This document shows, piece after piece, positions 36,922-57,056 of a stretch of DNA of 64,000 nt. This DNA is from Candidatus Aldehydirespiratoraceae bacterium. Lineage in GTDB: Bacteria > Actinomycetota > Acidimicrobiia > Acidimicrobiales > Aldehydirespiratoraceae. The stretch spans positions 1,481,835 through 1,545,834 of the forward strand of contig CBDFKX010000002.1 in NCBI GenBank assembly GCA_965249055.1. Reading direction: 5' to 3'. Below the pieces are notes generated by a model that was not told where the DNA came from, ran no database searches, and saw nothing but the letters and a program-made list of their open reading frames with translations. Made by a program: the position numbers and the translations under genes. The stretch's first letter is position 1. The number at the start of each line of letters is the position of its first letter.

Positions 36922-37044
36922 GGCGTTCCTAACCGGGGTATTGATGGGCTACCAACCTTGATTTCAGTATGCCCAGTTGATTCAGAAAGTAGCAAGGTTC
37001 GACGACGCCTCGGTGCTGGTGACGGGCTGTCAGCGGTCCAACTT

Positions 37045-37521
37045 TCAGACGAGACGCTCGCATTTTGCACAGTGACCGTGAAGGTCAAGGCTGTGATGAA
37101 GGGGCTTGAAACTGGCGCGGGTAGCGACCAGGTTGAGGTGCTGATCTAGCAGCTCCTCGACCGCATCGTCGAGACGGACATCTTCGATAACGCCGCAGTT
37201 GACGCATACGAGGTGATGGTGGTGTGAGAGCAATGGCTCGGCCAATTCGAAGTGGGCATGGCCGCCGCTGCTGGTTATGCGATTGACAATACCGCATCGC
37301 TCTAGGACTTCAAGGTTGCGGTAGACGGAACTGGAGGCCAGATCGGGCGCGATTGCGACGATGTCGGGCAGCGTGAGCGGTTGGCTCGATCCAACTAATG
37401 CATCGACAAGACGGTGGCGCCCGGTTGTATAGCGGTGGTTGTCGTTGGAGAGTCGCTTGTGCACAAAAGCATGATGTTCAAAGGACTGGTCGTCGGGTCG
37501 GGTTGCTGTTGGCTTTTCCAT
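37045..37521 (-). CDS. zur: Fur-family metalloregulator, probably Zur
   Basis: RYTTGRHRLVDAL..., HHHLVCVNCGVIEDV, HGHCAKCE. Divergent from the znuA-like gene. ATG 37521 leaves the operator-like palindrome upstream. Confidence 0.75.
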   Translation of the reverse strand: MEKPTATRPDDQSFEHHAFVHKRLSNDNHRYTTGRHRLVDALVGSSQPLTLPDIVAIAPDLASSSVYRNLEVLERCGIVNRITSSGGHAHFELAEPLLSHHHHLVCVNCGVIEDVRLDDAVEELLDQHLNLVATRASFKPLHHSLDLHGHCAKCERLV

Positions 37522-37538
37522 CAGGGGTTTTAAATGTA

Positions 37539-37551
37539 AATGAGACTCATT
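37539..37551. promoter_or_regulatory. Fur/Zur-box-like palindrome
   Basis: AATGAG-A-CTCATT (6-1-6 perfect) inside an AT-rich patch between the divergent zur and znuA-like genes. Confidence 0.4.
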
Positions 37552-37589
37552 ATCATTATTACGCATCAACTCTCGAAGGGATCATAGTC

Positions 37590-38576
37590 GTGCGTGTCAG
37601 ACTGCGAACCATATTGGTGATCACGGGGCTGGTTCTAGTGATAGCTGGATGCGCAGATGACTCGTCGGATGGGGAATCGTCGGGTGATGCCGTCGCTACT
37701 GTTCCTAGGGTTCTAGCGACAACTGGTATCTGGTCAGACATCGTTTCGAACGTGGCTTGTGGCGGAATCGTTGATGTGGAGACGATTATCCCCGTCGGCG
37801 GTGATCCCCACGGGTTTGAGCCGTCGCTACAAGACCGTGAGCGCATGGAGAACGCCGCTCTAGTGGTGGTCAACGGCCTTGACCTGGAAGAACGCCTCGA
37901 AGATACCTTGGCAGCAGTTGAGGACTCCGGCACCCCCGTGTTCGAAGCCACCGAGCACACTGAAGCGATCCCCTTCTCGTCGGAGCTGAGCGAACATCAC
38001 CGCGACGGTTCCGAAAATGATGTCGCCGAAGAAGATGACCACCCGGGCGGTGGGGATCCGCATGTATGGTTCGATCCACAGCGGGTCTCGGAAATACTTC
38101 CCGAACTGGCCCATCGCTTGACTACCGATGTGGGGCTCGCGACCGATGCCATCGAGGAGTGCCTGCGTGACTACCAAGCCGAACTCGCAGCGGTTGATGG
38201 CGAAATTATGGAACTAGTCGAGCGAGTGCCTGCCGACAGCCGCAAACTAGTAACCAACCATGACGCTTTGGGTTACTTCGCCAATCGCTACGGATTCGAG
38301 ATTATCGGGACAGTGATCCCCACAGGGGCAATATCTGAGACAAGCCCCGCCCAGCTTCAGGCGTTGGCTGAAACCATCGAACACCAGGGGGTCAAGGCAA
38401 TATTTGCCGAGACTCTGCACTCCACCGACGTCGCCGACACACTTGCGTCGCGGGTCGACGACGTCGAGGTCGTGACGCTTTTTACTGGCAGTCTCGGCCC
38501 ACCGGGCAGTGGCGCAGAGGACTATGTCGGGTTAATGCGCACCAATGCACGTCTGATAGTTGACGCGCTCGGTTAG
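37590..38576 (+). CDS. metal ABC transporter substrate-binding lipoprotein (ZnuA/TroA-like)
   Basis: GTG start. Signal peptide with lipobox LVIAGC. Acidic/His-rich loop (SEHHRDGSENDVAEEDDHPGGGDPH) typical of ZnuA. Confidence 0.8.
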   Translation: MRVRLRTILVITGLVLVIAGCADDSSDGESSGDAVATVPRVLATTGIWSDIVSNVACGGIVDVETIIPVGGDPHGFEPSLQDRERMENAALVVVNGLDLEERLEDTLAAVEDSGTPVFEATEHTEAIPFSSELSEHHRDGSENDVAEEDDHPGGGDPHVWFDPQRVSEILPELAHRLTTDVGLATDAIEECLRDYQAELAAVDGEIMELVERVPADSRKLVTNHDALGYFANRYGFEIIGTVIPTGAISETSPAQLQALAETIEHQGVKAIFAETLHSTDVADTLASRVDDVEVVTLFTGSLGPPGSGAEDYVGLMRTNARLIVDALG

Positions 38577-38584
38577 AACTGACT

Positions 38585-39442
38585 GTGGAGTTTCTGACCG
38601 ACCCAGTGACGTGGTGGATAGATCCATTCACGTCCAACTCATTCATGCGAAACGCGCTCTACGCGGGCTTGCTTGTGGTACTCACCACCTCGGTTGTGGG
38701 CACTTGGGTCGTGTTGCGTGGGATGAGCTTCTTGGGCGATGCCCTGGCACACGGCGTGCTCCCCGGCATCGCTGTAGCGTTCATCATCGGTGTGAACACC
38801 ACAATCGGAGCGTTTGTTGCAGCCTTGGTGATGGTGTTGGGTATCAACTTGATCCGAAATCATTCGCCGCTCCCCGAAGACGCCTCAATTGGAGTGCTCT
38901 TCGTGGGTTTCCTGGCTCTGGCCGTGGTGATCATGTCGAGTTCGTCGGGGTCATACACGGGTGACCTCAATCGCTTTCTGTTCGGCTCGATCACCGGAGT
39001 CGACTCTGGAGACCTTCGGCGTCAAGCAATTGCGGCGGTGATCTCGTTGGCTGGCGTGACTGTTTTTTATCGAGCGTTTCTGGTGATGACTTTCGACGAA
39101 GCCCAGGCACAGGTCTTGGGTCTGCGCCCCCGTCTAGCGCACGCGATGCTGCTGGTGTTGCTGGTGATCTCAATCGTTTCGTCTTTCGAAGCGGTCGGGA
39201 ACCTATTGGTGTTCGCCTTTTTGATCGCGCCGCCCGCGACTGCGGTGCTGCTGGTAAGGAGAGTGCCGCGCATCATGATCGTGGCGACTGCCATCGGAGC
39301 GGGGTCGACAGTGGTCGGGCTGCTCATCAGCTATCACCACAGCACCGCCGCCGGAGCCACGATGGCCCTTGCGACGGTAGTTGTCTTTCTCGTCGTGCTC
39401 ACCTCAAAGTCGGTGCTGAATGCAATTGGAGAGCGTCGCTAG
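38585..39442 (+). CDS. metal ABC transporter permease (ZnuB-like)
   Basis: Polytopic. MSFLGDALAHGVLPGIA is typical of the ABC-3 family. Confidence 0.8.
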   Translation: MEFLTDPVTWWIDPFTSNSFMRNALYAGLLVVLTTSVVGTWVVLRGMSFLGDALAHGVLPGIAVAFIIGVNTTIGAFVAALVMVLGINLIRNHSPLPEDASIGVLFVGFLALAVVIMSSSSGSYTGDLNRFLFGSITGVDSGDLRRQAIAAVISLAGVTVFYRAFLVMTFDEAQAQVLGLRPRLAHAMLLVLLVISIVSSFEAVGNLLVFAFLIAPPATAVLLVRRVPRIMIVATAIGAGSTVVGLLISYHHSTAAGATMALATVVVFLVVLTSKSVLNAIGERR

Positions 39443-39501: not shown

Positions 39502-41097
39502 ATGGCTGCGTCGGAACAGCAACGCCGGCTAGGTGAGCATTTCGAGTTCCCCCAGACCGTCGAACACGTTGAGGGCAGCGGGCCGCGCAACATGGTCGTC
39601 TTGCTGCTTGACAGCCTTAACCGCCACATGCTCGGGGCCTACGGGGGCGACGAATTCGAAACCCCCAACCTTGATCGCCTAGCGGCTCGGTCGCTCAGGT
39701 TCACCCGTCATTACTCGGCGTCCTTGCCTTGTATGCCGGCCCGACACGATCTGCTCTGCGGATCCTGGGACTTCCTGTGGCGTCCCTGGGGGTCGATTGA
39801 ATTGTGGGAGAACAACGTCACCCAGGATCTACGGATGACCGGGGTAACGAGTCAGCTGATTACTGATCACCCTCATCTGTTTGAAACTGGCGGGGAGAAC
39901 TATCACACCGATTTCTCTGCCTGGGATTACCTCCGGGGTCACGAAGGTGACCCTTGGAAGACCCGTCCCGACCCGTCGTGGCTGGGTACTCCCGCTTTGC
40001 CTGCAGCACAGGGGATGTTTCGACGTGGTTATGACTACTCCCGTACCTACTTCCGGGAGGAGGGCGATTTCCCGGGCCCGAAAACCATGGCGGCAACCGC
40101 CGATTGGCTCGACCACAACGCAGGTGCCCACGAACGCTTCTTTTTGTTCGTCGATGAATTCGACCCCCACGAACCTTTCGACACGCCCGATCCCTGGACA
40201 TTCAAGTATCACGACCAGCGAGACGCGGAGTTGATGATCTGGCCGCCGTACGGCACCGATCCGGTCGGCAGTGGTGACATTACCGAGGCTCAGGCAGCGC
40301 AAATCCGTGCCAACTACGGCGCCAAACTGTCGATGATTGATCACTGGCTGGGCCGTGTTCTCGACGCTATGGACCGCAACGGGCTGTGGGACGACACGGT
40401 ACTTGTGCTTTGCACCGATCATGGGCACTATCTCGGTGAACACGGCGGCGCCTTCGGTAAACCGGGATTGCCGATCTACAACACGCTGGGGCACATTCCG
40501 ATGCTGATCTCCTGGCCGGGAGCGGTACCGGGCGCTTGTGATGCGCTCACGACCACGGTCGACATCCACGCCACGATCGTCGATCTTTTTGGTGCAGAGC
40601 CCCGCCACCGCACCCACGGCAAATCGTTGCGGCCGTTGCTCGACGGCCACGCCGAAGCGGTTCGCGAGTGGACTTTGCAGGGCTATTTCGGTCGTGAAGT
40701 AAACGTGATTGACGTTGCCGGGAAATACGTTCGCACCACGCCAGATGGGCCGTTCCCGTTGTCGATGTGGTCGAACCGTTGGTCGACGATGCCGGTCCAC
40801 GCTCTGCCGCGTTTTGGGCTGCCCCGCCCAGACGACCGAGCGTTTCTTGATCGAATGCCAGGATCAGACGTGCCGGTGATCCGCCAACCCTTCAGCGCAG
40901 AATCAGACGGGTCGCATCCCTTCATTGCCGGCCGTTCGGTTTCGGATACGCATCTTCTTTTCGATGTTGCTGATGCGGACGAGTCGGAGAACATGTCCGG
41001 TTCGCGACGCGAGGCGTACTACGTCGAGTTGCTGAGACATGCCCTGAACGAGGTGGATGCACCCGAAGATCAACTGCAACGACTCGGCCTGTCGTGA
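39502..41097 (+). CDS. type I (formylglycine-dependent) sulfatase 1
   Basis: VVLLLDSLN..., SLPCMPARHDL (C-x-P-x-R), CTDHGHYLGEHG. No signal peptide. Confidence 0.8.
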   Translation: MAASEQQRRLGEHFEFPQTVEHVEGSGPRNMVVLLLDSLNRHMLGAYGGDEFETPNLDRLAARSLRFTRHYSASLPCMPARHDLLCGSWDFLWRPWGSIELWENNVTQDLRMTGVTSQLITDHPHLFETGGENYHTDFSAWDYLRGHEGDPWKTRPDPSWLGTPALPAAQGMFRRGYDYSRTYFREEGDFPGPKTMAATADWLDHNAGAHERFFLFVDEFDPHEPFDTPDPWTFKYHDQRDAELMIWPPYGTDPVGSGDITEAQAAQIRANYGAKLSMIDHWLGRVLDAMDRNGLWDDTVLVLCTDHGHYLGEHGGAFGKPGLPIYNTLGHIPMLISWPGAVPGACDALTTTVDIHATIVDLFGAEPRHRTHGKSLRPLLDGHAEAVREWTLQGYFGREVNVIDVAGKYVRTTPDGPFPLSMWSNRWSTMPVHALPRFGLPRPDDRAFLDRMPGSDVPVIRQPFSAESDGSHPFIAGRSVSDTHLLFDVADADESENMSGSRREAYYVELLRHALNEVDAPEDQLQRLGLS

Positions 41098-42608
41098 CGC
41101 GGCATCAGGCCCGTCAACCCAACGTCTTGTGGTTGATGTGCGACGAGTTGCGGCCCGACGGCGTGGGTTGCTATGGCAACAAGTGGGGGGTTGTCGATAC
41201 ACCAAACCTTGATTCTTTGGCTGAGACCGGTACCCGTTTTGATCGTTTCTTTGTGAACTCTCCGATTTGTGTGTCGTCGCGCACGGCTTACCTGACAGGA
41301 CGTCGCCCCGCGGTTACGGGCGCGTACGGCAACGAAGCTTCGTATCGCTGGTTCCCACCCGAGACCTATACACCGCAACAACAAGAGACTCCCGAGACAT
41401 TTGTGGAGATGCTGGCTGATGCTGGCTACGTCACGCGCAACCTTGGGAAACAGCATCTCAACAGATTGCTTGAGCCATTCGAAACGTCTGACACCAGTAA
41501 CGCGGATCAGTGGCGTCTCATGCAAGCAGTCTCTCAGGTTGGAGTCGATATCCAGCGCAACGGGGTCGGCTCTGCGATCGGAGGTGTCTGGCCCACCGGT
41601 CACGAATATCCCCACGACGCGCTGGCAGATCAGGCGGGGGCGTGGTTTGCCGAGGCGCCGACGGACAAGCCGTGGTTGCTGCGTGTTTCGTTCTTGCAAC
41701 CGCACACCCCAGTTGTGGTTCCTGAACCGTTCGCGAGCCGTTTCGTTGACCAGGACTGGACCACACCCAGAGATATCCGCGCTTCGGTCAGCGCCTTTGA
41801 ACAGAACTTCGGTGACGTCACTAGGCCAAGCGATGTCGATGATGAGTGGATCAGCTTGGCGAGAGCCCGCTACTACGGGTTGACAGCATGGCTCGACCAC
41901 CAGATTGGGCAGGTCTTGTCCGCGCGCGAAGAGTCTGGACAGCGTGACTCGACCGTCGTGGTGTTCTGCTCAGACCACGGAGCCGGGTTGGGTGAAAGGG
42001 GCAACTGGGCCAAGCATGTTTTTGCTCCCCAAGTTCAGGGTTCGCCGCTGATCGTGGCGGGGGCAGGTATAGACCAGGGCGTGCTGCGCAACGACCTCTG
42101 TGAAGCAGTTGACTTTGCTCCAACAATCCTCGCGCTCGCCGGGGTGGAGCCGACGGCTGCTGTTGACGGCCGTGACCTATTCGCGTCAAACAGCGGGGGA
42201 CCGGCATTCGGCGCAATCGGATACGGGCTTCGAGAATGTTTGGCGCAACCAATGACACGTAACGGACAGTGGCCCGACGGCCGGGGTTGGCCGCAACGTT
42301 TTTGTGTGCGTGATGATCGCTACCGACTTGATCGCTCGACTCGAATGGACGGGCATGTCATTGACGCTGAGGACACGGATGCGGATATCTTCTTGGCCGA
42401 TTCGCAAACGGACCCCGATGAGATCTGCAACCTGGCCGACGATGGGGCCAATGCTGAGGTACGTGATCGGTTACTTTCGCTGCTTGAGAGCCACATTGTC
42501 AGAGCAGCCGTTCCTGAACTCGATGACTTCTACCAAGCTTGGCCGTCGATCATTGAGGAGATAATCGCTGAGAGGCTGGGACCTAAGAGTTCGGGAGAAG
42601 ACACTTGA
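41094..42608 (+). CDS. type I sulfatase 2 (variant C-V-S-S-R signature)
   Basis: LWLMCDELRPD, SPICVSSRTAYLTGR, CSDHGAGLGERG. ATGA-type overlap with the upstream gene. Confidence 0.8.
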   Translation: MTRHQARQPNVLWLMCDELRPDGVGCYGNKWGVVDTPNLDSLAETGTRFDRFFVNSPICVSSRTAYLTGRRPAVTGAYGNEASYRWFPPETYTPQQQETPETFVEMLADAGYVTRNLGKQHLNRLLEPFETSDTSNADQWRLMQAVSQVGVDIQRNGVGSAIGGVWPTGHEYPHDALADQAGAWFAEAPTDKPWLLRVSFLQPHTPVVVPEPFASRFVDQDWTTPRDIRASVSAFEQNFGDVTRPSDVDDEWISLARARYYGLTAWLDHQIGQVLSAREESGQRDSTVVVFCSDHGAGLGERGNWAKHVFAPQVQGSPLIVAGAGIDQGVLRNDLCEAVDFAPTILALAGVEPTAAVDGRDLFASNSGGPAFGAIGYGLRECLAQPMTRNGQWPDGRGWPQRFCVRDDRYRLDRSTRMDGHVIDAEDTDADIFLADSQTDPDEICNLADDGANAEVRDRLLSLLESHIVRAAVPELDDFYQAWPSIIEEIIAERLGPKSSGEDT

Positions 42609-44029
42609 TGGCCAACTCTTCGAGTCCCTCGAACTTGGTGCGACCCAACGTTTTGTTCATCATGACCGACCAATGGCGCTGGGATTGGCTCAGTTGTATG
42701 GGGACTGTCGGCCCGAGCACGCCACACGTTGACGCCCTAGCTGCGCGCGGCGTTCATATGACTCACCTGGTTACGGACTCTGCGATTTGCGCGCCAGCAC
42801 GGATTGCTCTGGCATCAGCGATGTCACCGCTACGTCTTGACTGTTTGACGAACAGTTCGGTCCTTCCGGCCGGTACCGAAACGTGGCACCACCGTTTCCG
42901 TGACAGCGGATACCGGGTTGGGTTGGTCGGCCAAACTGATCTGTCGAAACCGACCCGCAACATAGGGTTGAAGGGCAATCGCGAGCTTGTCTATGAATGG
43001 GGTTTCAGCGACGGGCTCGAGGTGGAGGGCAAGATGCATGCCGCGGCTGGTGGAGAGGGATATCCACTGGGACCGTACGGCGCGTTCCTTGCTTCACGAG
43101 GACTATTCGAGGCATTTCACCACGATTACAACGCCCGCAACATCCCCATGTACAAGGCCATGTTCAGTAACGGGCATTACGACGACCCGGACTGGTATCG
43201 GGATTCGGTGCTTCCCGCGGATGCATTTGCAGACACCTGGATCGGTGAACGCGCGGTGGACTGGCTTGCTACGGCGGGAGACGGCCCGTGGAATCTGATG
43301 GTGAGTTTCGCTGGACCCCATGATCCCTTCGATCCACCGACCGTCTGGGCCGACATGTTCCGACATGCCGACATGGCCGATCCGGTTCTCAACGCCAACG
43401 ACAACAAACCGCTTTACCTCACGACTTCGGCTTGGGGATTTGATGCTGCCCACATAGCGGAGATTCGGCGTCAATACAGCGCCTCGTGTGCCGCCATTGA
43501 TCACGAGGTTGGCCGCATGGTGGCCGTGCTTGAGGACCGCGGGCTTGTTGCTGAGACGATTGTGGTCTTCACCTCAGATCACGGGGAGATGCTCGGCGAT
43601 CATCACCGGTTCCAAAAGCATGTCGCGTATGAGCCCTCGGTGCGGGTTCCTTTTGTGGCTGCCGGTCCTGGTATTGCCCAAGGAAGCAGTGAAGCGCTGG
43701 CGCAGCTCAGCGATGTGGGGCCGACCCTTTGTGAACTCGCTGGTCTTGAACCCTGGCGCGGTGTTGATGGAATGTCGTTTGCCTCGACTCTGACCTCTCC
43801 CACGGTTCCGCATCGTGATGCTGTCGTCTGTGTTGAACCGCATTACCGCATGGTTCGAACCCAAGACCGCAAATTCATCTGGAACCGCAACGACATCGAG
43901 GAGGTCTACGATCTCGGCGGCGACCCCGGTGAGTGTGAAAATCTGCGTGGGACTGCGCCCGAACACGAACTACTCGACCTCCTGATTGAGCACACCGGAC
44001 CCTTGCCCGAAGGCCCTAGTCTGTTGTGA
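42605..44029 (+). CDS. type I sulfatase 3
   Basis: LFIMTDQWRWD, SAICAPARIAL, TSDHGEMLGDHH. Overlaps the upstream gene. Confidence 0.8.
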   Translation: MMANSSSPSNLVRPNVLFIMTDQWRWDWLSCMGTVGPSTPHVDALAARGVHMTHLVTDSAICAPARIALASAMSPLRLDCLTNSSVLPAGTETWHHRFRDSGYRVGLVGQTDLSKPTRNIGLKGNRELVYEWGFSDGLEVEGKMHAAAGGEGYPLGPYGAFLASRGLFEAFHHDYNARNIPMYKAMFSNGHYDDPDWYRDSVLPADAFADTWIGERAVDWLATAGDGPWNLMVSFAGPHDPFDPPTVWADMFRHADMADPVLNANDNKPLYLTTSAWGFDAAHIAEIRRQYSASCAAIDHEVGRMVAVLEDRGLVAETIVVFTSDHGEMLGDHHRFQKHVAYEPSVRVPFVAAGPGIAQGSSEALAQLSDVGPTLCELAGLEPWRGVDGMSFASTLTSPTVPHRDAVVCVEPHYRMVRTQDRKFIWNRNDIEEVYDLGGDPGECENLRGTAPEHELLDLLIEHTGPLPEGPSLL

Positions 44030-44953: not shown

Positions 44954-45727
44954 TTGACTGACCAGCCGACTTCTCCAACGAACAGGCAACCTAGCGACGA
45001 GCGCTACATGCACGGGTACCACGAGGTGATCGTGGGGTCGTACACTCGCCATACCGCGGAGACGTGCGCGGGCTTTCTGCTGCCTGGCCTGCAACCGGAC
45101 ACAGTGCTACTCGATTTGGGTTGTGGCCCCGGCACGATCACTGCCGGTCTGGCTCGCCGGGTCGGGCGCGCGGTCGGATTAGATGCATCCGCGGAGATGG
45201 TCGACGCTGCGCAAAACCACGCCGCAGACTGCGGGATCGACAATGCGACTTTTGAGGTCGGTTCGGCTTACGACCTGCCATTCAGCGATGACAGCTTCGA
45301 CGTGGTGTACGCCCATCAGGTGTTCCAGCATCTGTCGCAACCCGTCGAGGCACTGCGGGAAGTCCGCCGAATCCTGAAACCCGGAGGGATAGTGGCAATT
45401 CGTGACTCCGATTACGAAACGATGATCCACGCTCCAGTGACCGAGGCCATCGTTCGTTGGCGAGAGCTCTATCACCAGGTGTCCAGGGCCAACGGCGGCG
45501 AACCGAACGCTGGGCGGCATTTGTTGTCCTGGGCGACCGAGGCCGGATTTGTTGAGCCCGAAGTCACCACCGACACGGTCACGCATGCGACTCTCGAAGG
45601 GCGCACCGCTTGGGGCGAGATGTGGGCGGTGCGCGTAGTAGACAGCGACTTTGCCCGTCACGCGGTAGACCACGGGCTCTCCACCCGAGCCGAACTGCAG
45701 CAAATATCGGACTCCTTTCGCCACTGA
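44954..45727 (+). CDS. class I SAM-dependent methyltransferase (see finding: TGA at an expected Trp, ORF continues to 45796)
   Basis: VLLDLGCGPGTIT, FDVVYAHQVFQHL, LKPGGIVAI. Confidence 0.75.
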   Translation: MTDQPTSPTNRQPSDERYMHGYHEVIVGSYTRHTAETCAGFLLPGLQPDTVLLDLGCGPGTITAGLARRVGRAVGLDASAEMVDAAQNHAADCGIDNATFEVGSAYDLPFSDDSFDVVYAHQVFQHLSQPVEALREVRRILKPGGIVAIRDSDYETMIHAPVTEAIVRWRELYHQVSRANGGEPNAGRHLLSWATEAGFVEPEVTTDTVTHATLEGRTAWGEMWAVRVVDSDFARHAVDHGLSTRAELQQISDSFRH

Positions 45728-46912: not shown

Positions 46913-46989
46913 CGGAGCGGCCAAGACTCGATGTCTCCGAACCTCTAGCATGAGTGCCGGCTGGGACGTACCAAAGACCGGGAGGTCGC

Positions 46990-48009
46990 ATGAACCCTCG
47001 AAGAGACATGGTCATCGGTGCCATTGCCTGCATCGTCATCTTCTTCTTCTTTGTCAGCATCGATTTGTACGAGACAGTCTCGGACTTCACGAGTGAACAC
47101 GAGGGCTGGCAACTCGTTGAGATCCTGGCGGCTGTGCCTACGCTCGCCCTGGTCACCTCCTGGTTCGCCGTGCGGCGCTGGCTGGAAGTAGCCCACCTCA
47201 ACGACAGGCTGGCTCATACCGTCGGACAACTCAAAGAAGCGATTAATGAACGCCAGGCCATGGAGGAACAGATCGGCGAGGCTTACAAAATGGCGGCGAT
47301 GGGCGCGCTATCTGGAGGGCTCACCCGGGAACTCAACAATGTGATGCAGCCGATCGTGACCTTGGCGCAACTGGGAGTCGACCAAATCGACCAAAGCGAG
47401 GCGCAACGGGAGAATATGGGTCGCATACTCTTGGCGGCGGAGCGTGGTTGCAAGATTCTCGAGAGTTCATTGGCTGACCCTGTTGGCGGATTCGGTGACG
47501 CAGAAGAGATCATCCCGTCGCAGGGGTTGTCGAGTGTGATTGCCCAGGTAGGAAAGTCGGTCGGAAACGATGTGACGATTGTGTCCCGCTTCAGCGACGA
47601 GGGTGGCGTGATCTCAGTGAACCGTGAAGAATTCGACTCGGTGTTTACGAGTTTGCTGACCAACGCGGCACAGGCCATGAAGCGTGGGGGCGAGATCACG
47701 GTGGGACTCTCGACCCGCACACTTGACGAGGCCCAGGCGAGTGTGCAGGGAGTTTCAGCTGGCAGCTACTTCAGTGTCACTGTGGCCGACCAAGGCATTG
47801 GCATGACCGATGATGTGCGAACCCAAGTTTTTGATCCGTTCTTCACAACCAAATCGGCCGACGGATGCGCCGGTCTGGGTCTCACCATCGCCTATGAACA
47901 GGTTCACGGATGGTCGGGCAGGATCACTGCGGAATCGTCTTATGGTGAGGGTTCGACGTTCGAAGTTCTCATCCCCCACCACCATGCAGACGAAGCCCCA
48001 GGAGCCTGA
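46990..48009 (+). CDS. membrane histidine-kinase-like protein with Arg in place of the H-box histidine
   Basis: Two N-terminal TM segments. DHp-like ...MGALSGGLTRELNNVMQPI (expected AHELNNP). Intact N, G1 (DQGIGM), F (FDPFFTTK) and G2 (GLGLTIA) boxes. Confidence 0.7.
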   Translation: MNPRRDMVIGAIACIVIFFFFVSIDLYETVSDFTSEHEGWQLVEILAAVPTLALVTSWFAVRRWLEVAHLNDRLAHTVGQLKEAINERQAMEEQIGEAYKMAAMGALSGGLTRELNNVMQPIVTLAQLGVDQIDQSEAQRENMGRILLAAERGCKILESSLADPVGGFGDAEEIIPSQGLSSVIAQVGKSVGNDVTIVSRFSDEGGVISVNREEFDSVFTSLLTNAAQAMKRGGEITVGLSTRTLDEAQASVQGVSAGSYFSVTVADQGIGMTDDVRTQVFDPFFTTKSADGCAGLGLTIAYEQVHGWSGRITAESSYGEGSTFEVLIPHHHADEAPGA

Positions 48010-48012
48010 ATA

Positions 48013-48384
48013 ATGGCGACCGTGTTGGTGGTTGACGACGACCCGGGGGTGCGCTTTGCGCTGACGCGGCTTTTGGATGCTTGTGGTGACCATGAGGTAA
48101 TCGAAGCCGACAGCTGCGAAGCAGCGCTGGAGCTAATGGCTTCCCGCAAGCCGGACCTGGTTTTGACAGAGTCCGTGATGCCGACAATGACCGCGATCGA
48201 GTACATAAAGGCGTTGCGCTGGGCCTGCCCTCGCGCCGGGATCGTGGCTTTGTCTGCGGGTGGTATGCACCAAAGCCCAGAGTTCGCTACCGGCCTTGCC
48301 AGCACCGCAGGAGCCGACGAAGTCCTGCGCAAACCTGTCAAAAACGAACCCCTGCTAGCCGCCGTCAACAAAGTCCTCCGCTGA
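48013..48384 (+). CDS. stand-alone receiver domain with Glu at the phospho-acceptor position
   Basis: VLVVDDDPG..., PDLVLTESVMP (expected DLVLLDxxMP), VALSAG, LRKPV. Confidence 0.75.
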   Translation: MATVLVVDDDPGVRFALTRLLDACGDHEVIEADSCEAALELMASRKPDLVLTESVMPTMTAIEYIKALRWACPRAGIVALSAGGMHQSPEFATGLASTAGADEVLRKPVKNEPLLAAVNKVLR

Positions 48385-50695: not shown

Positions 50696-51358
50696 CTAGG
50701 GGCTAGGTGTGGAGTTGGAGTCGGGAGGATGGGTGACTTTAAGGGACAAGAAGCGGAGTGGGAGCTCGATCAGCGCGGTGGGACCGTGTGTCACCTCACC
50801 CCGAAATTGCATGGAGTCGCCTGCGGTGAGCACGTACCGCTTGGTGCCGTAGCCGTACTCGACGCAGCCCTCAAGGATGTATATGAACTCCACGCCACCG
50901 TGTTGGAACAGCGGGAAAACCTCGTTGGGTTCGGTGATTGTGACGTACAGCGATTCGATCTCACGGGTTGGACCTCGCAGCGATCCGAGATCGTGATACA
51001 CCCTGCCGGGTCCAGCACCTTCGTGAATGATCTCCATCCCTTGTCCAGCGGGGACGATCACTGCATCGCGTTCTTCGTCCAGCCCTCGAAAAAAGGCTGT
51101 AAAGGGAACCTCGGCCGCGTCAGCCAAGCTGATGAGTGTGCTGAAACTTGGTGAGGTCTGCCCATGCTCGACTTTGGAGAGCATCCCGATTGATAGTCCC
51201 GCGGCGTCTGCGAATTGCTCCATGGTCAAGCCCATGCCCACCCGGAGTTCGCGCACTCGCCGACCAACGCTCTCGCACACCTCATCGGTTGTCAGTCGGC
51301 CTGTTCGGCTGTCGCTGACGGTCCGCGGCGCTTCTGGGTCGCTTCCTTCAGGTGGCAT
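50696..51358 (-). CDS. XRE-family HTH regulator with a C-terminal cupin domain
   Basis: VGRRVRELRVGMGLTMEQFADAAGLSIGMLSKVEHG, followed by a cupin region (FIYILEGCVEY...GDSMQF). Lies 17 nt downstream of the gmaS-like gene. Confidence 0.75.
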   Translation of the reverse strand: MPPEGSDPEAPRTVSDSRTGRLTTDEVCESVGRRVRELRVGMGLTMEQFADAAGLSIGMLSKVEHGQTSPSFSTLISLADAAEVPFTAFFRGLDEERDAVIVPAGQGMEIIHEGAGPGRVYHDLGSLRGPTREIESLYVTITEPNEVFPLFQHGGVEFIYILEGCVEYGYGTKRYVLTAGDSMQFRGEVTHGPTALIELPLRFLSLKVTHPPDSNSTPSP

Positions 51359-51375
51359 GTTGGTGGCGTCGATTC

Positions 51376-52731
51376 TCAGAACAGAGTGAGGTACTGGTCG
51401 ATCTCAGATTGGGTGACCTGGTGATGGTGGGCCATGAACTCAGCTTTTTTGGTCTTTACAAAATAGTCCCGATAGGAGCCGTCGGGGGTCATCCCGAGTC
51501 CTTTCTCAAGGACATCGCAGGTGGCCAGGTTTTCTGCTGCATGCAGCAGAGTAGGCGGCAACGTGACGATCCCTCGGTCTGCGATCTCTTCAGCGGAGAG
51601 CTTGAACAAGTTGTCCTCATTCGGTTGACCGGGGTCGACTCCTCGGTCAATACCGTCGAGTCCGCAAGCAAGCATCGCCGCGAACATCAGGTATGGGTTC
51701 GCTGCTCCATCGGCGAGACGGAGTTCCAACCGGTCTGGCTCGGGTATGCGGATCATCTGGGTGCGGTTGTTGCCCCCATACGCCGCGTAAGCCGGTGCCC
51801 ATGTCGCCCCCGATGTTGGGGCACCCACCCCCATTCGCTTGTAGGAGTTGACGATGGGGCAGAGGATTGCGACAAGCGACGGGGCATGTTCGATCAACCC
51901 GGCCGCGAACTGATAGGCCAAGTCGCTCAATCCCAAGCCTTTGGAGTCGTCGTCGCCTCCAACGAAGAGCGGTTCGTTGTCGAGCGACCAAAGGCTTGAA
52001 TGAGCATGGAGCCCGTTGCCGGTCTTGTCGGCGAAGGGTTTGGGCATGAACGTCGCATAGCGGCCATCGCGGGTGGCCATTGTGTGGATCATCAACCGGA
52101 ACAGCACCAGCCGATCAGCGGTTGTGAGGGCATCGGCATACTGCCAGTTCTGTTCGAACTGGCCGTTGGCGTCCTCATGGTCGTTGGCGTAGTTGCCCCA
52201 TCCCATGGCGTTGAGATTGCGTGAGACTTCGGTGAGGTGGGGCAGCATGCGGGTGAGGCCCTTGGCGTCATAACAGGGTTGTTCGTCCACGTCACGCTCG
52301 TCTGCGACCACGATTGACCCGTCGGGGTTCCTGTTGACCAGGGAATACTCGGCTTCGACACCCGCGTTGAACACCAAACCACGCGACGTGAGATCGTCGA
52401 GCGCTTGGCGCAGGATCACGCGTGGTGCATAGGGCCAGAGTTCGCCTTCAACGGTTGGGTCGCATTGCAAGGCGGCGACATTGGGTTGCCATGGCAACTG
52501 GGTGTAGGAAGCGGGATCGGGAATGGCCAAGATGTCGGGGCTAGACGGGTCCTGGCCAATGGGACCCGCGGCAAAACCTGCGAATCCGGCACCTTCGTTC
52601 ATTACGGTCTCGAGCGCTTCAACCGGAACTAGCTTGGCGCACGGTTTGCCGTGCATCTCCACAAACATTGCGTAGATGAACTCGACACCATCGTTTTCGA
52701 CCCGTGCTTTGATTTCTTCGTATGCGCCCAT
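51376..52731 (-). CDS. gmaS: glutamine-synthetase-family ligase, gamma-glutamylmethylamide synthetase-like
   Basis: GS beta-grasp and catalytic motifs (FMPKPF.DKTGNGLHAHSSLW, NRTQMIRIP). GAAGGAG lies upstream of ATG 52731. Divergent from the mgsABC-like genes. The symbol is assigned from context only. Confidence 0.65.
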   Translation of the reverse strand: MGAYEEIKARVENDGVEFIYAMFVEMHGKPCAKLVPVEALETVMNEGAGFAGFAAGPIGQDPSSPDILAIPDPASYTQLPWQPNVAALQCDPTVEGELWPYAPRVILRQALDDLTSRGLVFNAGVEAEYSLVNRNPDGSIVVADERDVDEQPCYDAKGLTRMLPHLTEVSRNLNAMGWGNYANDHEDANGQFEQNWQYADALTTADRLVLFRLMIHTMATRDGRYATFMPKPFADKTGNGLHAHSSLWSLDNEPLFVGGDDDSKGLGLSDLAYQFAAGLIEHAPSLVAILCPIVNSYKRMGVGAPTSGATWAPAYAAYGGNNRTQMIRIPEPDRLELRLADGAANPYLMFAAMLACGLDGIDRGVDPGQPNEDNLFKLSAEEIADRGIVTLPPTLLHAAENLATCDVLEKGLGMTPDGSYRDYFVKTKKAEFMAHHHQVTQSEIDQYLTLF

Positions 52732-52907
52732 CGACAACTCCTTCGTCTGAACTGAACCTGTGCGCGATTCACCTGAGGAAACCTCTACTGTAGGTGAAAT
52801 ATCTTCACCGTTGTCAAGAGATGCGGCTAAGGTTTGCGAACCTGCCCGAGGCAGACCGCCGAGCTTAAACCGCCCGAAGAAAATTCTTGGAGGAGTCGAA
52901 CTCAAGC

Positions 52908-53807
52908 ATGTGTGGGATTGTCGGTTTGTTCTTAAAAACTGCCACTTACCGCGACGAACTGGGAAGGCTCACCGCGGTCATGCTGCATGAAATGCGTGAA
53001 CGAGGCCCCGACAGCGCCGGATTCGCCGTCTACGACCAGGGTGACAGCGAACGAACGAGGATCACTGTGCTGGTGACCGACGAATCGGTCAACCGTCGCC
53101 AGACAGCCGACGCTTTAGAAGCCGAGCTCGGAGCCGAAGTCACTCTGCGGGAAATCCATGACCACGCCGTGTTCGAAACAACCGGAGATGGTCGTGTTGC
53201 GCGCCAATGGCTCATCGACAACGTAGCTGGAGTCGATGTATTGAGCTATGGCCAACAGATCGAGCTCTACAAGTCGGTCGGAGATCCCGATCTGGTTGCT
53301 ATCCGCTACGACCTTGCGTCACGCCGCGGTACACACGCCATCGCGCACACTCGCATGGCTACTGAGTCCGCCGTCACCACCAACGGATCGCACCCGTTCG
53401 TAACCGGGGCGGACACATGCTTGGTCCACAACGGCTCACTGTCTAATCACAACCAGCTTCGGGAACGGTTAGTCCAGCGAGGCGAGTCTTTCCAGACCGA
53501 GAACGATTCCGAAGTTGCTGCCGGCTATCTCTCCTGGAAATTGCGTACCGGCGACACCATCGACGGTGCCCTATCCAGCGCACTGAGCGACCTCGACGGC
53601 TTCTACACCTTCGCCATCGGCGTCAAGAACGGTTTTGCCATCCTGCGAGACCCGATTGCATGCAAGCCGGCCGTCGTGGCGGAAACCGATGATTGGGTAG
53701 CGATGTCGTCGGAGTATCGAGCAATCGCTCAACTCCCCGACGTAAGCCATGCAGAAATATTTGAACCCGAGCCGACCCGTGTCTACTCGTGGAGTTTGGC
53801 CTCATGA
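52908..53807 (+). CDS. class II glutamine amidotransferase-like subunit (MgsA/GlxB-like)
   Basis: MCGIVG N-terminal nucleophile, HTRMATES, HNGSLSNH. Confidence 0.75.
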   Translation: MCGIVGLFLKTATYRDELGRLTAVMLHEMRERGPDSAGFAVYDQGDSERTRITVLVTDESVNRRQTADALEAELGAEVTLREIHDHAVFETTGDGRVARQWLIDNVAGVDVLSYGQQIELYKSVGDPDLVAIRYDLASRRGTHAIAHTRMATESAVTTNGSHPFVTGADTCLVHNGSLSNHNQLRERLVQRGESFQTENDSEVAAGYLSWKLRTGDTIDGALSSALSDLDGFYTFAIGVKNGFAILRDPIACKPAVVAETDDWVAMSSEYRAIAQLPDVSHAEIFEPEPTRVYSWSLAS

Positions 53808-54499
53808 CCGTTTCGATCGACCTGTCCCAGGTACCACTACGTGAACTGAACAAACGCCTGCACGAAACCGATGAGGGACACTTCGTTGTGCGCAATCCAC
53901 GCGGGGCCCATGCCTTGGCGGTAGGAATCACATCGGCGGTCACCGTCGACGTGGATGGATCAGTCGGTTACTTCTGTGCGGGGATGAACATGATGGGCAC
54001 GGTGCGTGTCGACGGCAACGCCAGCACCGGACTCGCTGAGAACATCATGTCGGGGATGGTACGGATAACCGGTAACGCCACGATGTCGGCGGGCGCTACG
54101 GGTCATGGCGGTTTGGTGGTCATTGAAGGCAACGCTGGGGCTCGCTGCGGTATTTCCATGAAAGGCGTCGACATTGTGGTCGGTGGCCATGTCGGGCATA
54201 TGAGCGCATTCATGGCCCAAGCCGGCAACCTCGTCGTGCTCGGCGACGCCGACCACGACCTTGGCGATTCGATATATGAAGCTGAGGTGTTTGTGCGGGG
54301 CAAAGTCGCATCGTTGGGATCTGATTGCGTGGAAAAAGAAATGACCCCGCAACACCTGGACACGCTCAGCCGCCTGCTCACAGCCGCAGAAATGTCTGCC
54401 GAACCAAGCGACTTTCGTCTCTACGGATCAGCCCGAGAGCTCTACAACTTCCATGTTGACGACGTTGATGCGGCCGCTGCGGCGAAAGGACGGCCATGA
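53804..54499 (+). CDS. GXGXG-motif protein (MgsB/GlxC-like, GltB C-terminal-domain-like)
   Basis: Repeated beta-helix pattern (VDGSVGYFCAGMN..., VRITGNA..., VVIEGNAGARCG...). ATGA overlap with the upstream gene. Confidence 0.75.
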   Translation: MTVSIDLSQVPLRELNKRLHETDEGHFVVRNPRGAHALAVGITSAVTVDVDGSVGYFCAGMNMMGTVRVDGNASTGLAENIMSGMVRITGNATMSAGATGHGGLVVIEGNAGARCGISMKGVDIVVGGHVGHMSAFMAQAGNLVVLGDADHDLGDSIYEAEVFVRGKVASLGSDCVEKEMTPQHLDTLSRLLTAAEMSAEPSDFRLYGSARELYNFHVDDVDAAAAAKGRP

Positions 54500-55812
54500 A
54501 CCAACAGAGATGGCACCACCGAGAGTCCTACACGTTCGACCGCAATGTGATCGCGGAGATCCGGCGGGCGGCCAATACCGGGATCTACCGGATTCGAGGT
54601 TGGGGAGCCAAGCGGGAACTGCCCACCTTCGATGATCTCGTGTTCCTCGGTGCTTCGATGTCGCGCTACCCGTTGGAGGGTTACCGCGAGGCGTGTGCCA
54701 CGGATCTTGTGATTGGTGAGGCGCGTGCCGAGCGACCCGTTCGTCTCGCCATTCCGATCACCATCGCAGGGATGAGTTTCGGGTCGTTGTCGGCGCAGGC
54801 AAAAGAAGCTCTCGGTCGGGGTGCTACCGCGGCTGGTACCTCTACGACCACCGGGGACGGCGGTATGACGGCTGAGGAGCGCGGACACTCCAAGACGCTT
54901 GTTTACCAGTACTTGCCGTCGCGTTACGGGATGAACCCAGATGATCTGCGCCGCGCTGACGCTATTGAGGTAGTTGTTGGGCAAGGTGCCAAACCAGGTG
55001 GCGGCGGGATGCTGCTAGGGCAGAAGATCAATGAACGCGTGGCGGAGATGCGTACGCTCCCCGAGGGGATCGATCAGCGGTCAGCGTGTCGTCATCCCGA
55101 CTGGACTGGTCCTGACGACCTGATGATCAAGATCATCGAACTGCGCGAGATCGTCGATTGGCAGGTTCCGATCTATGTCAAGGTTGGGGCCGCTCGCCCG
55201 TACTACGACACCTGCTTGGCGATCAAGGCGGGTGCCGACGCGATAGTTGTCGACGGGATGCAGGGGGGCACAGCAGCCACCCAAGATGTCTTTATCGAAC
55301 ATGTCGGTATCCCCACGATCGCTGCTGTTCCGGAGTCGGTGCGCGCGCTCAAGGAACTCGGTGTCCATCGTGAGGTGAAACTGATCGCTGCTGGCGGGAT
55401 TCGTTCGGGTGCCGATGTGGCTAAGGCAATAGCGTTGGGGGCCGACGCGGTTTCGCTCGGCACTGCCGCACTGATCGCCATCGGAGACAACGATCCCGCG
55501 CTTGACGAGCAGTATCGGGAATTGGGTTCGGCGGCCGGTTTTTGGGAAGACTTTCAAGCAGGAAACGACCCGGCGGGGATTACCACGCAGGAACCTGAGT
55601 TGGCGAGCCGCCTTGATCCAGAACTGGCCGGTCGGCGCTTGGCCAACTATTTGCAGGTTTTGACCCTTGAGCTTCAGACGCTGGCTCGGGCCAACGGAAA
55701 GTCCCATGTCCACAACCTTGAGCCTGAGGATCTGGCTGCTCTCACCGTGGAGGCAGCAGCCATGGCCAGGGTGCCGCTCGCGGGCACGGAATGGATTCCC
55801 GGTAGTTCTTGA
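54496..55812 (+). CDS. FMN-binding glutamate-synthase-family protein (MgsC/GlxD-like)
   Basis: ISAMSFGSLS-type segment (IAGMSFGSLSAQAKEAL), QGAKPGGGG, VDGMQGGTAA, AAGGIRSGADVAKAIALGADAV. Confidence 0.8.
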   Translation: MNQQRWHHRESYTFDRNVIAEIRRAANTGIYRIRGWGAKRELPTFDDLVFLGASMSRYPLEGYREACATDLVIGEARAERPVRLAIPITIAGMSFGSLSAQAKEALGRGATAAGTSTTTGDGGMTAEERGHSKTLVYQYLPSRYGMNPDDLRRADAIEVVVGQGAKPGGGGMLLGQKINERVAEMRTLPEGIDQRSACRHPDWTGPDDLMIKIIELREIVDWQVPIYVKVGAARPYYDTCLAIKAGADAIVVDGMQGGTAATQDVFIEHVGIPTIAAVPESVRALKELGVHREVKLIAAGGIRSGADVAKAIALGADAVSLGTAALIAIGDNDPALDEQYRELGSAAGFWEDFQAGNDPAGITTQEPELASRLDPELAGRRLANYLQVLTLELQTLARANGKSHVHNLEPEDLAALTVEAAAMARVPLAGTEWIPGSS

Positions 55813-55887: not shown

Positions 55888-56061
55888 ATGCCATCCAGTC
55901 TGCAGTCGACAGGGATGCTTCTAGTTGTCGCCTTGGTTTTTGGCTTGACACTCGCCGTTGTGGGAGAGTCTGGCCCTGCGGGTGCTGATTCCTTCCCGGG
56001 AGGCAACGGAAAACAGGCAGTCGGCAAGCTCTACTGGTGGTTGCGACAGAGTGCAGTGTAG
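55888..56061 (+). pseudogene. 5' fragment of a secreted-protein gene truncated by IS30
   Basis: Untracked 57-codon ORF with a signal peptide: MPSSLQSTGMLLVVALVFGLTLAVVGESGPAGADSFPGGNGK... It runs into the IS30 inverted repeat at 56036. Confidence 0.3.
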
Positions 56062-57056
56062 GTGTGTTGGGCTGAGTTCCAGTTGTGGAGTTTGCGGGGC
56101 ATGTGGTTGAGGTTGTCTTGGATCAACGCGAGTTGTATGGGGTTGAGGTTGAGGTTGGTGCTTTTGGGGAGCCGGCGTCGTAGCAGTCCGTTGGTTTGTT
56201 CGTTGCTGGGGCGTTGCCACGGGGATCGTGCTTGGCAGAAGAACACTTCGATGTTGCAGTTGTGTTCGATGTCGGCCCAGCGTGCCATTTCGCTGCCTTG
56301 GTCCCAGGTGAGGGTTTTGGCCATCTCAGCGGGTTGACGACCAAACGCTGCGGTGACGGCTCGGGTCACGTTGTCGGCGCTGTAACCGTGCGGCAGCGGC
56401 ACCACCAAAGTGAGCCGGCTGACGCGTTCTACGAGCGTGGCGATCGCGCTGGCGTTGTTGGCGCCGATCATCAAGTCGCCTTCCCAGTGTCCTGGTTCGC
56501 TGCGGTCGTCTGCTTGCTGGGGGCGTTGCGTCAGGGGCCGGTACGGGCCTAAAGCGCTGCGTTTGGCGGTTTCGCAACGGCTGCGGGGTTTACGCCTGCG
56601 CCGACCGCGGGGCAGGCTCTGCCACGAACCCGCTTTGAGTCCGCTGGTGTTGTTGTTGTTGGCGTAACAGGCCCGATAGATCGTCTCGGCGGACACCGCC
56701 ATCCCTCTAGTGTGCAGGTCCGCAGAGATCGCATGCGGCGATCAACGCAGTTTCAACCCCTTAGCGACCTCACCAGCCAAAACCGCGTCACCAGCGAGTT
56801 TGTGAACCTTCGGTCGAGCCGCGTCGACACCCGTGCGGCGATGAGCGCGACCAGCCCGATAACCATCACGCCCGCCGCCACGGCCAAGCTCGCGATACAC
56901 CGTGGACCGGCAACGACCCAACCGATCCGCCATCTCCGCCACGCTCAACCCCGCCTCAGACATCACCTCGATCCGTGTCCGCTCATCGAAACACAAACGC
57001 TGTGCCATACTGAAAACCTCCATCGGTTCGGTTGCTGACTCTTCACCGACCATCAT
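56031..57056 (-). pseudogene. IS30-family transposase with an in-frame TGA (56742-56744)
   Basis: Both track ORFs (56742..57056 and 56031..56702) share a frame. Reading ...GLKLR-TGA-SPHAISADLH..., Trp (RWSP) is expected at the stop. The DDE region (HWEGDLMIG...TWDQGSEM...NEQTNGLLRR) is intact. Confidence 0.8.

Follow-up and report, generated by a model that had tools for sequence, protein, structure and literature searches.

A histidine kinase-like protein and its operonic receiver with Arg and Glu in place of both phospho-acceptor residues in a clade of Acidimicrobiaceae

Can a two-component pair go on signalling once both of its partners have lost the residue that carries the phosphoryl group? 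This question is raised by two adjacent genes in a stretch of 64,000 nucleotides (hereafter, the window) from Candidatus Aldehydirespiratoraceae bacterium (contig CBDFKX010000002.1; class Acidimicrobiia), the first of which encodes a protein resembling sensor histidine kinases and the second a receiver (REC) domain. According to the original prediction, the phospho-acceptor His of the former is replaced by Arg and the phospho-acceptor Asp of the latter by Glu, and the two proteins form a phosphorylation-independent signalling pair. The answer developed here is that the pair has abandoned His-to-Asp phosphotransfer and that it is very likely a functional pair all the same.

Both substitutions had been placed correctly to the codon. 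In phmmer comparisons with proteins of solved structure, the segment GGLT-R-ELNN of the kinase-like protein stands opposite GGVA-H-DFNN of CckA (5idj) and GTMA-H-EINN of LvrB, with Arg113 (codon CGG, 47326..47328, plus strand) exactly in the phospho-His column. Likewise, LVLT-E-SVMP of the receiver aligns with the T-D-...MP segment of CheY and other receivers, with Glu53 (codon GAG, 48169..48171, plus strand) exactly in the phospho-Asp column, and in the AlphaFold2 (AF2) model of the receiver E53, S81 and K107 occupy their canonical places at the C-terminal ends of β3, β4 and β5, respectively. The alignments leave no other conserved His or Asp available: no substitute acceptor His is universally conserved in the Arg-bearing clade described below, and the DHp domain of the window protein has no His at all. 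The best candidate, H306, is present in 24 of the 25 clade sequences but lies in the CA domain, and was rejected. The kinase-like protein is a pseudo-histidine kinase (a concept of Collins & Childers, as cited in PMC12632262), that is, a protein with the histidine kinase fold that lacks the acceptor His and is nevertheless maintained, and its neighbour is an aspartate-less receiver, or pseudo-receiver, in which the REC domain is recognised and the phosphorylatable Asp is absent.

A search over 5.8 billion proteins delineated a family of compact proteins of 334-353 residues with the same architecture as the kinase-like protein of the window. The 24 clusters most similar to the latter (58-93% identity), which come from Acidimicrobiaceae or Acidimicrobiia wherever they are named, all have Arg in the acceptor column (25 of 25 clade kinase sequences), and the next ten relatives (39-52% identity) all have His. 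On the receiver side, Glu fills the acceptor column of all 24 clade receivers and Asp that of about 30 more distant family members, at least one of them from Gemmatimonadota; protein P0121 is identical to the window receiver, although an exact look-up of the latter gave no match. Among 11 independent loci that were read from DNA, six combine Arg with Glu (the window, L094, L095, L091, L081 and L096), five combine His with Asp (L082, L093, L083, L084/L085 and L097) and none is mixed, and nine further Arg/Glu pairs were deduced by matching kinase and receiver contigs of identical length. Depending on the locus, Arg is encoded by CGG, CGA or CGC and Glu by GAG or GAA; the sister lineages have CAC or CAT for His and GAC or GAT for Asp. 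Thus, close orthologues retaining the canonical residues, which would have implied recent decay in the window, are not found, and His and Asp occur solely in the more distant sister lineages. A profile scan of genome contigs with the family alignment returned unrelated kinases only (L001-L080) and no orthologues, the generic FDPFFTTK motif having dominated the matches. A metagenome scan with the back-translated pattern GGMH..P..A..LA..AGAD gave five loci, of which L086 and L088 (= L092) are genuine; the remaining three are PdxJ genes matched by chance and were discarded.

In a neighbour-joining tree of the kinases, built with the acceptor column masked and 100 bootstraps, the Arg-bearing sequences are monophyletic (100/100) and nested in a grade of His-bearing lineages. 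The Arg/Glu state is therefore derived and of single origin, both acceptors having been exchanged a single time, on the stem of a clade of Acidimicrobiaceae. That branch also saw the kinase change Leu119 to Met and Lys/Arg at position 158 to Glu, with Ser159 and Ser160 beside it, and columns 157-160 are those that discriminate the clades in helix α2 of the DHp domain. The codon of Glu158 is GAG at 47461-47463 (plus strand); this position, Lys or Arg in most His-bearing relatives, aligns with the Arg of LVRKLL in CckA and the Lys of IMKNLL in LvrB. In the receiver, the two residues directly after the acceptor changed on that branch, as did Gly61 (to Ala), Gly82 (to Ala) and Arg103 (to Glu), and Arg106 was acquired. 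The basal kinase P0024 already has Arg113 and Glu158 and still keeps Thr294, and the basal receiver P0182 already has Glu53 and Arg106 and still keeps Gly82 and Arg103; the acceptor changes therefore came early and some of the others later. P0182, a Glu-type receiver of 131 residues on a 514-bp contig that otherwise displays features of the Asp-bearing sisters (SGGG, DRTL and a long C-terminal tail), probably branches at the base of the Arg/Glu clade; no kinase partner was recovered for it.

Within this clade, the ratio of nonsynonymous to synonymous divergence (dN/dS) is 0.11 for the kinase and 0.13 for the receiver at a dS of ~0.7, compared with 0.20 and 0.29, respectively, for a His/Asp pair of similar divergence. 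By region, the kinase values are 0.09-0.10 for the transmembrane (TM) segments, 0.08-0.09 for the DHp domain and 0.12-0.14 for the CA domain. His and Asp are each one base change away, yet all members keep Arg and Glu while the codons vary synonymously; the identity of the residues has therefore been held. Both genes, and Arg113 and Glu53 specifically, have been kept by purifying selection since the replacement, in line with the original assessment that random decay is the less likely course. The helix that contains the H-box is the most conserved segment of the kinase in the Arg clade (mean pairwise identity 0.91 vs 0.77 overall), and E114, N116, N117, Q120, P121, I122, T124 and Q127 are invariant across the Arg and His clades alike. 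In the receiver, the segment identities are 0.97 for the β4 loop, 0.97 for α4, 0.91 for β5 with the Lys and 0.87 for β3 with the Glu loop, vs 0.83 overall.

The kinase-like gene occupies 46990..48009 on the plus strand, its open reading frame running from ATG at 46990 to TGA at 48007-48009 (339 residues); there is an alternative upstream GTG at 46954, and all orthologues begin with MNPRRD. The protein consists of two TM helices, a signalling helix, a DHp hairpin and a CA (HATPase_c) domain, so that the membrane anchors and the DHp-like helix called originally are both recovered, and its AF2 model comprises helices 3-36, 42-131 and 137-161 followed by an α/β domain (172-329). The membrane anchor (47011..47175, plus strand) is made up of TM1 (residues ~8-30), an outer loop of ~15 residues (~31-45) and TM2 (~46-62); the hydrophobic stretches are VIGAIACIVIFFFFVSI and ILAAVPTLALVTSWFAV, and the AF2 helices are interrupted at residues 37-41. 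Helix α1 of the DHp domain with the H-box (47290..47382, plus strand; residues 101-131), MAAMGALSGGLT-R-ELNNVMQPIVTLAQLGV, aligns with the H-boxes of CckA and LvrB, and α2 (47398..47472, plus strand; residues 137-161) was delimited from the AF2 secondary structure. In a Foldseek search with the model, ZraS (9jfj), LvrB (8vc9) and CckA (5idj) came out on top, and KinB, HK853 and DivL (4q20) were also matched, with a probability of 1.00 for ZraS, CckA, KinB and HK853. The nearest NCBIfam profiles are VirA-like, CckA, AtoS and ZraS, aligned from residue ~72-85 to the C-terminus. Collectively, the AF2 model and the Foldseek matches reveal the succession of DHp hairpin and CA domain that defines sensor histidine kinases. 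The Pfam HisKA profile gave no match on the protein; because most of the His-bearing relatives (P0025-P0032) are not matched either, this is a trait of the family and not a consequence of the loss of His.

The CA, or ATP-binding, domain (47503..47976, plus strand; residues 172-329) is recognised by Pfam HATPase_c with 61.8 bits against a cutoff of 26.4 (residues 215-330). Its ATP-binding boxes had been described as complete, which holds for most of them: N225 (47662-47664), the G1 box D267-x-G269-x-G271 (from 47788), the F box FDPFFTTK and G295-L-G297-L of the G2 box (47860-47883 with its first half; all on the plus strand) are kept in the window protein. N225, G269, G271, G295 and G297 are invariant in the alignment, and D267 and the residues of FDPFFTTK are nearly so. 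The description fails for the start of the G2 box, which reads D-G-C-A in the window protein instead of the G-x-G-T that precedes GLGL in the relatives (positions 291-294, with G291, G293 and T294 changed), and for the first Asn of the N box (N221 in the relatives), which is mostly Ser in the Arg clade. Judging from these motifs, the protein likely retains ATP binding, with the G2 box and the ATP lid partly altered in the Arg clade.

The receiver gene (48013..48384, plus strand; ATG at 48013, TGA at 48382-48384) encodes 123 residues that form a single REC domain with no output domain. Pfam Response_reg covers model positions 1-111 of 111 with 64.2 bits against a cutoff of 30.2, and the AF2 model (predicted local distance difference test score 94) has the canonical (βα)5 fold, with a Foldseek template modelling score of 0.88 to both Spo0F and KdpE. 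As originally reported, the rest of the active site is in place: the acidic pocket Asp8-Asp9-Asp10 (GAC GAC GAC, 48034..48042, plus strand), kept as DDD in all Glu-clade receivers, Ser81 (TCT, 48253..48255, plus strand) at the conserved Thr/Ser position at the end of β4, and Lys107 (AAA, 48331..48333, plus strand), the conserved Lys of the RKP motif after β5, which like P108 is invariant in 56 receiver sequences. The receiver thus possesses the acidic metal-binding pair (D8/D9, with D10), S81 and K107 expected of its class, all conserved in the clade. The β4-α4 loop carries a motif, S-[AG]-G-G-M-H-Q-x-P-E (48253-48285, residues 81-91), that the Glu clade shares with the Asp clade; one of its residues, His86, hardly varies and lies near the active site. 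Wider relatives have SGGGR in this loop.

The junction between the genes (48000..48015, plus strand) consists of AGGAG at 48000-48004, the kinase stop TGA at 48007-48009 and the receiver ATG at 48013-48015, such that the co-oriented genes are separated by just 3 nt, as had been noted. The receiver start overlaps the kinase stop or follows it by 2-3 nt in nine of the 11 related loci, and among the six Arg/Glu loci the junction is an overlap or a 3-nt spacing in five, L096 having a 45-nt gap. Adjacency, shared orientation and the conserved docking surface are what would be expected of a cognate two-component pair. No other kinase or receiver gene is encoded within the window. Read-through fusion of the two genes, which in the window lie in the same frame with TGA and one codon between them, was considered and rejected: in L094 and L095 the genes overlap by 1 nt in different frames. 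A scan for promoters and terminators around the pair was uninformative.

The acceptor columns, the clade-wide survey and the dN/dS values together support the originally proposed phosphorylation-independent signalling pair; the independence itself we infer from the chemistry of the two residues. With Arg and Glu in these positions, transfer from His to Asp is ruled out chemically, and the two genes have nonetheless been preserved as one unit. How the pair would signal is a separate matter, and here we lean, by a small measure, towards a cognate pseudo-histidine kinase and pseudo-receiver that arose from an ordinary His-Asp system, are still functional and signal by regulated binding, as a partner switch. 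The receiver would still dock on DHp α1 of the membrane-anchored kinase-like protein; docking without acceptors has a precedent in the HK853(H260A)-RR468(D53A) complex, the architecture of which is unchanged from normal (PMC7005713). Once docked, the proteins would bring the former His and Asp positions face to face, with the space that a phosphoryl group ordinarily takes up left between them. Arg113 and Glu53 could span this space via a salt bridge, so that the pair would be frozen in imitation of the phosphotransfer or product complex. Such a direct contact is geometrically plausible because Arg is longer than His, Glu is longer than Asp and the charges are opposite; we regard this particular latch as possible rather than probable. 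Input through the TM helices and the short outer loop, the nucleotide state of the CA domain, or both, would alter the conformation of the DHp domain, which in turn would set how tightly the receiver is held, leading to sequestration and then release. The free receiver might be on-like, since Glu53 would touch Ser81 and Lys107 and thereby mimic phosphorylation in part, and might act on a target through its highly conserved α4-β5 face. In Asp-less receivers, the Asp is replaced by Glu more often than by any other residue, in 26% of cases (PMC4395418; PMC12632262).

Several considerations weigh against this regulated-binding scheme. The covariation of Arg and Glu amounts to one event on one branch, which links the two replacements in time and is not a replicated correlation, although it makes functional coupling plausible. 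The contact between Arg113 and Glu53 is a geometric argument, made from the two proteins taken separately, and Arg113 might instead pair inside the kinase with Glu158, which is specific to the clade and lies at a similar height of the modelled hairpin. Asp-to-Glu replacement is not activating in every receiver (PMC4395418). Furthermore, pure binding has no evident need for an intact Mg2+ pocket or for N, G1 and F boxes maintained at a dN/dS of ~0.13, which hints at retained chemistry. Finally, among the related loci that were read, no gene neighbour is conserved across both clades.

Retained chemistry is the substance of one alternative, namely that the CA domain has kept phosphotransferase or ATPase activity with another acceptor, be it Ser, Thr or Tyr on the receiver (e.g., Thr52 or Ser81) or on the kinase-like protein itself, or that it serves as an ATP-hydrolysis timer. 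RsbW/SpoIIAB-type kinases, plant phytochromes and subfamily-2 ethylene receptors provide analogues. The near-complete conservation of the N, G1, F and GLGL residues described above, the low dN/dS of the CA domain, the invariance of Glu114 and Asn116/Asn117 beside the Arg, and the conservation of Thr52 and Ser81 in the receiver are all compatible with such an activity. However, Thr52 and Ser81 are just as conserved in the His/Asp sisters and hence no new feature, position 112 immediately before the Arg is variable (Thr, Ile or Val), and in the Arg clade the first part of the G2 box, responsible for positioning the ATP phosphates, has moved away from GxGT to DGCA, with N221 mostly changed to Ser. 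This alternative, moreover, leaves the fixation of Arg and Glu specifically unexplained, and we consider it unlikely.

An equally improbable alternative is that the two proteins have become uncoupled and were each recruited to other circuits, the kinase-like protein reading or modulating another regulator or kinase in the manner of DivL and the receiver competing for other kinases or serving them as a decoy. DivL and other known pseudo-kinases do act in this way (PMC4211667, PMC9430884), a role in modulating other systems has been proposed for pseudo-receivers (PMC12632262), and a second His-less kinase of the family, P0251 with Gly in the acceptor column, stands without a receiver. Against uncoupling, the genes stay in the same order and translationally coupled, with tight junctions at all Arg/Glu loci read except L096; the docking helix of the kinase and the active-site loops of the receiver are the most conserved segments of the two proteins; no further kinase or receiver is available in the window; and both acceptors changed on one branch.

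We consider it highly improbable that the relay persists with new atoms, the CA domain phosphorylating Arg113 to a phosphoramidate from which the phosphoryl group passes to Glu53 as a γ-glutamyl acyl phosphate. Phospho-Arg and glutamyl phosphate are chemically analogous to phospho-His and to the canonical acyl phosphate intermediate, respectively, phospho-arginine being familiar as a phosphagen; to our knowledge, however, no histidine kinase fold makes phospho-Arg and no receiver accepts a phosphoryl group on Glu. Everything such a relay would need apart from the acceptor atoms is kept, including Glu114 as the base, the N, G1 and F boxes, Asp8/Asp9, Ser81 and Lys107, and neither Arg nor Glu varies in the clade although their codons have turned over synonymously. 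Bacteria are known to phosphorylate proteins on arginine (McsB; PMC9112008), and the survey of aspartate-less receivers notes that Glu can be phosphorylated but that no bacterial signalling example is known (PMC4395418). With both new side chains longer than the old ones, in-line transfer would be cramped unless the proteins docked in a shifted geometry, and the residues of the G2 box and the lid that hold the γ-phosphate have drifted. If true, a relay of this kind would be remarkable and would explain the strong selection on every other catalytic residue of both partners.

The remaining alternative, that the genes are decaying remnants with two neutral, accidental substitutions, might draw on the argument that the loss of one acceptor frees the other from constraint, so that passive double loss is possible, and on background rates of single loss (His is absent in 0.9% of HisKA and Asp in 2.0% of REC domains; PMC12632262), yet it is refuted, for practical purposes, by the selection data: the reading frames are intact in at least 25 sequence clusters down to 58% identity, dN/dS is ~0.1 in both genes and in each region of the kinase, Arg and Glu are invariant despite synonymous change with the active-site regions the most conserved, dS of up to ~1.5 in the clade argues against a very recent common ancestry, and the decayed pseudokinase PsmA, by contrast, has a variable His position and has lost its ATP motifs (PMC12963549).

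How does the regulated-binding pair that we favour compare with known systems? In sequence and fold, the best matches are kinases of the CckA/NtrB/AtoS/ZraS type (H-box AHExNNPL), with which the kinase-like protein shares the DHp hairpin and Bergerat-fold CA domain, the N, G1 and F boxes, the surroundings of the H-box (GGL-x-E-L-N-N-x-x-x-P-I) and a receiver encoded directly downstream. It differs from them by the Arg, the short outer loop (~15 residues), the lack of PAS and HAMP domains, the altered first half of the G2 box and a DHp domain that Pfam HisKA does not recognise. DivL of Caulobacter, with Tyr for His, is likewise a histidine kinase fold without the acceptor, and its DHp/CA core binds the single-domain receiver DivK, acting by binding and not by phosphotransfer (PMC4211667, PMC5361649). 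However, DivL has multiple PAS domains, regulates CckA and reads a truly phosphorylated receiver made by other kinases, so that its partner keeps the Asp, whereas here the partner is operonic and has none. PsmA, a hybrid histidine kinase-like pseudokinase of Streptomyces, is also actinobacterial, also lacks the His of the H-box and also functions independently of a phosphorelay, but its His position varies (Glu, Asp, Gln, Val or Tyr), the phosphatase motif and the ATP-binding residues are lost and the REC Asp is kept (PMC12963549); in the present case one residue is fixed, the ExxN motif, N225, G1, F box and GLGL are kept, and it is the Asp of the partner that is replaced. Among aspartate-less or pseudo-receivers (ChxR and plant PRRs with Glu, FrzS, RitR), the REC fold likewise persists without the phospho-Asp, and Glu is often read as a phosphomimic; these include orphans and multidomain proteins and often also lose DD2, Thr or Lys (PMC4395418, PMC12632262), unlike the stand-alone domain described here, which keeps the DD, Ser and Lys positions and whose gene directly follows that of a kinase-like partner in which the His disappeared on the same branch. 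Signalling also continues after loss of the His in two kinds of histidine kinase-derived modules of plants, the subfamily-2 ethylene receptors and the HKRD of phytochromes, albeit in eukaryotic, fused architectures with CTR1 and PIFs as outputs and with no separate complementary receiver. Pseudo-kinases and Asp-less receivers are each already established; what sets the present case apart is a conserved operonic pair with reciprocal, charge-complementary replacements, in which nearly all the remaining catalytic and docking residues persist. Literature searches turned up no account of a pair in which both the His and the Asp are missing, a negative that, given incomplete coverage, falls short of proof.

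Variation at the active sites is not confined to the Arg/Glu clade. A second, independent His-less lineage exists in the small two-TM kinase family, with Gly (P0251, P0266) or Ala (P0275) at the His position and a degraded H-box (GGFAGELRR); its P0251-type gene at L098 (4001-5014) sits between ssb and gyrA, and neither a receiver gene nor a remnant of one lies beside it. Among the receivers of the His/Asp sisters, one subgroup (P0153, P0154, P0156, P0160-P0162, P0168, P0169, P0174-P0176 and that of L084, 7009-7407) keeps the Asp and has Glu-His-Asp or Glu-Arg-Asp at the position of the acidic metal-binding pair. Active sites in the family therefore seem liable to vary by more than one route.

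In the window, the pair is flanked on one side by a zinc-homeostasis cluster (35881-39442) that encodes a CDF exporter, a Fur/Zur regulator, ZnuA and an ABC-3 permease, and on the other (50696-55812) by a HTH_3/Cupin_2 regulator, a glutamine-synthetase-like gene and a GATase/GXGXG/Glu_synthase trio; the latter two look like a γ-glutamylmethylamide/N-methylglutamate (methylamine) pathway. L094 and L095 show the same two-cluster frame, L091 shows part of it, and the genes in between vary. Three consecutive sulfatase-family genes (531, 504 and 474 residues; 39502-44029), which in the window stand between the Znu genes and an enoyl-CoA hydratase gene, have no counterpart at this place in L094 or L095. 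A rve-family integrase/transposase gene (56031-56702, minus strand) lies just past the Glu_synthase-like gene. The neighbours of the His/Asp sister loci are quite unlike those of the Arg/Glu loci. In three of the five distinct His/Asp loci, the receiver is directly followed by a gene for a class-I S-adenosylmethionine (SAM) methyltransferase (L084, 7436-8197; L085, 5674-6417; L093, 7409-8173), the L093 and L084 versions of which are 70% identical, above the 59% of their kinases. The methyltransferase of the window (44954-45727) was considered as an orthologue of the sister-locus enzyme and rejected, the two sharing only 30% identity over the SAM motif. No functional link from the neighbours to the output of the pair could be drawn.

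What, then, does this pair mean for the biology of two-component systems? Pseudo-receivers make up several percent of bacterial receiver domains, and how they are turned on and off "remains a mystery" according to a 2025 review (PMC12632262). Here, the likely controlling partner of a pseudo-receiver is encoded next door and is itself a pseudo-kinase with an otherwise intact interface, and close sisters with the canonical His and Asp supply natural controls. NCBI names the members of the family "ATP-binding protein" or "hypothetical protein" and, given that Pfam HisKA misses the DHp domain of the family, censuses of pseudo-kinases based on HisKA would overlook such pairs. The existence of a pair of this kind would not astonish specialists; its value lies in a clean, naturally controlled system, with a small chance of new phospho-chemistry. 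The pair makes it testable what the dead parts of two-component systems do, and whether an old phosphotransfer interface became a binding switch.

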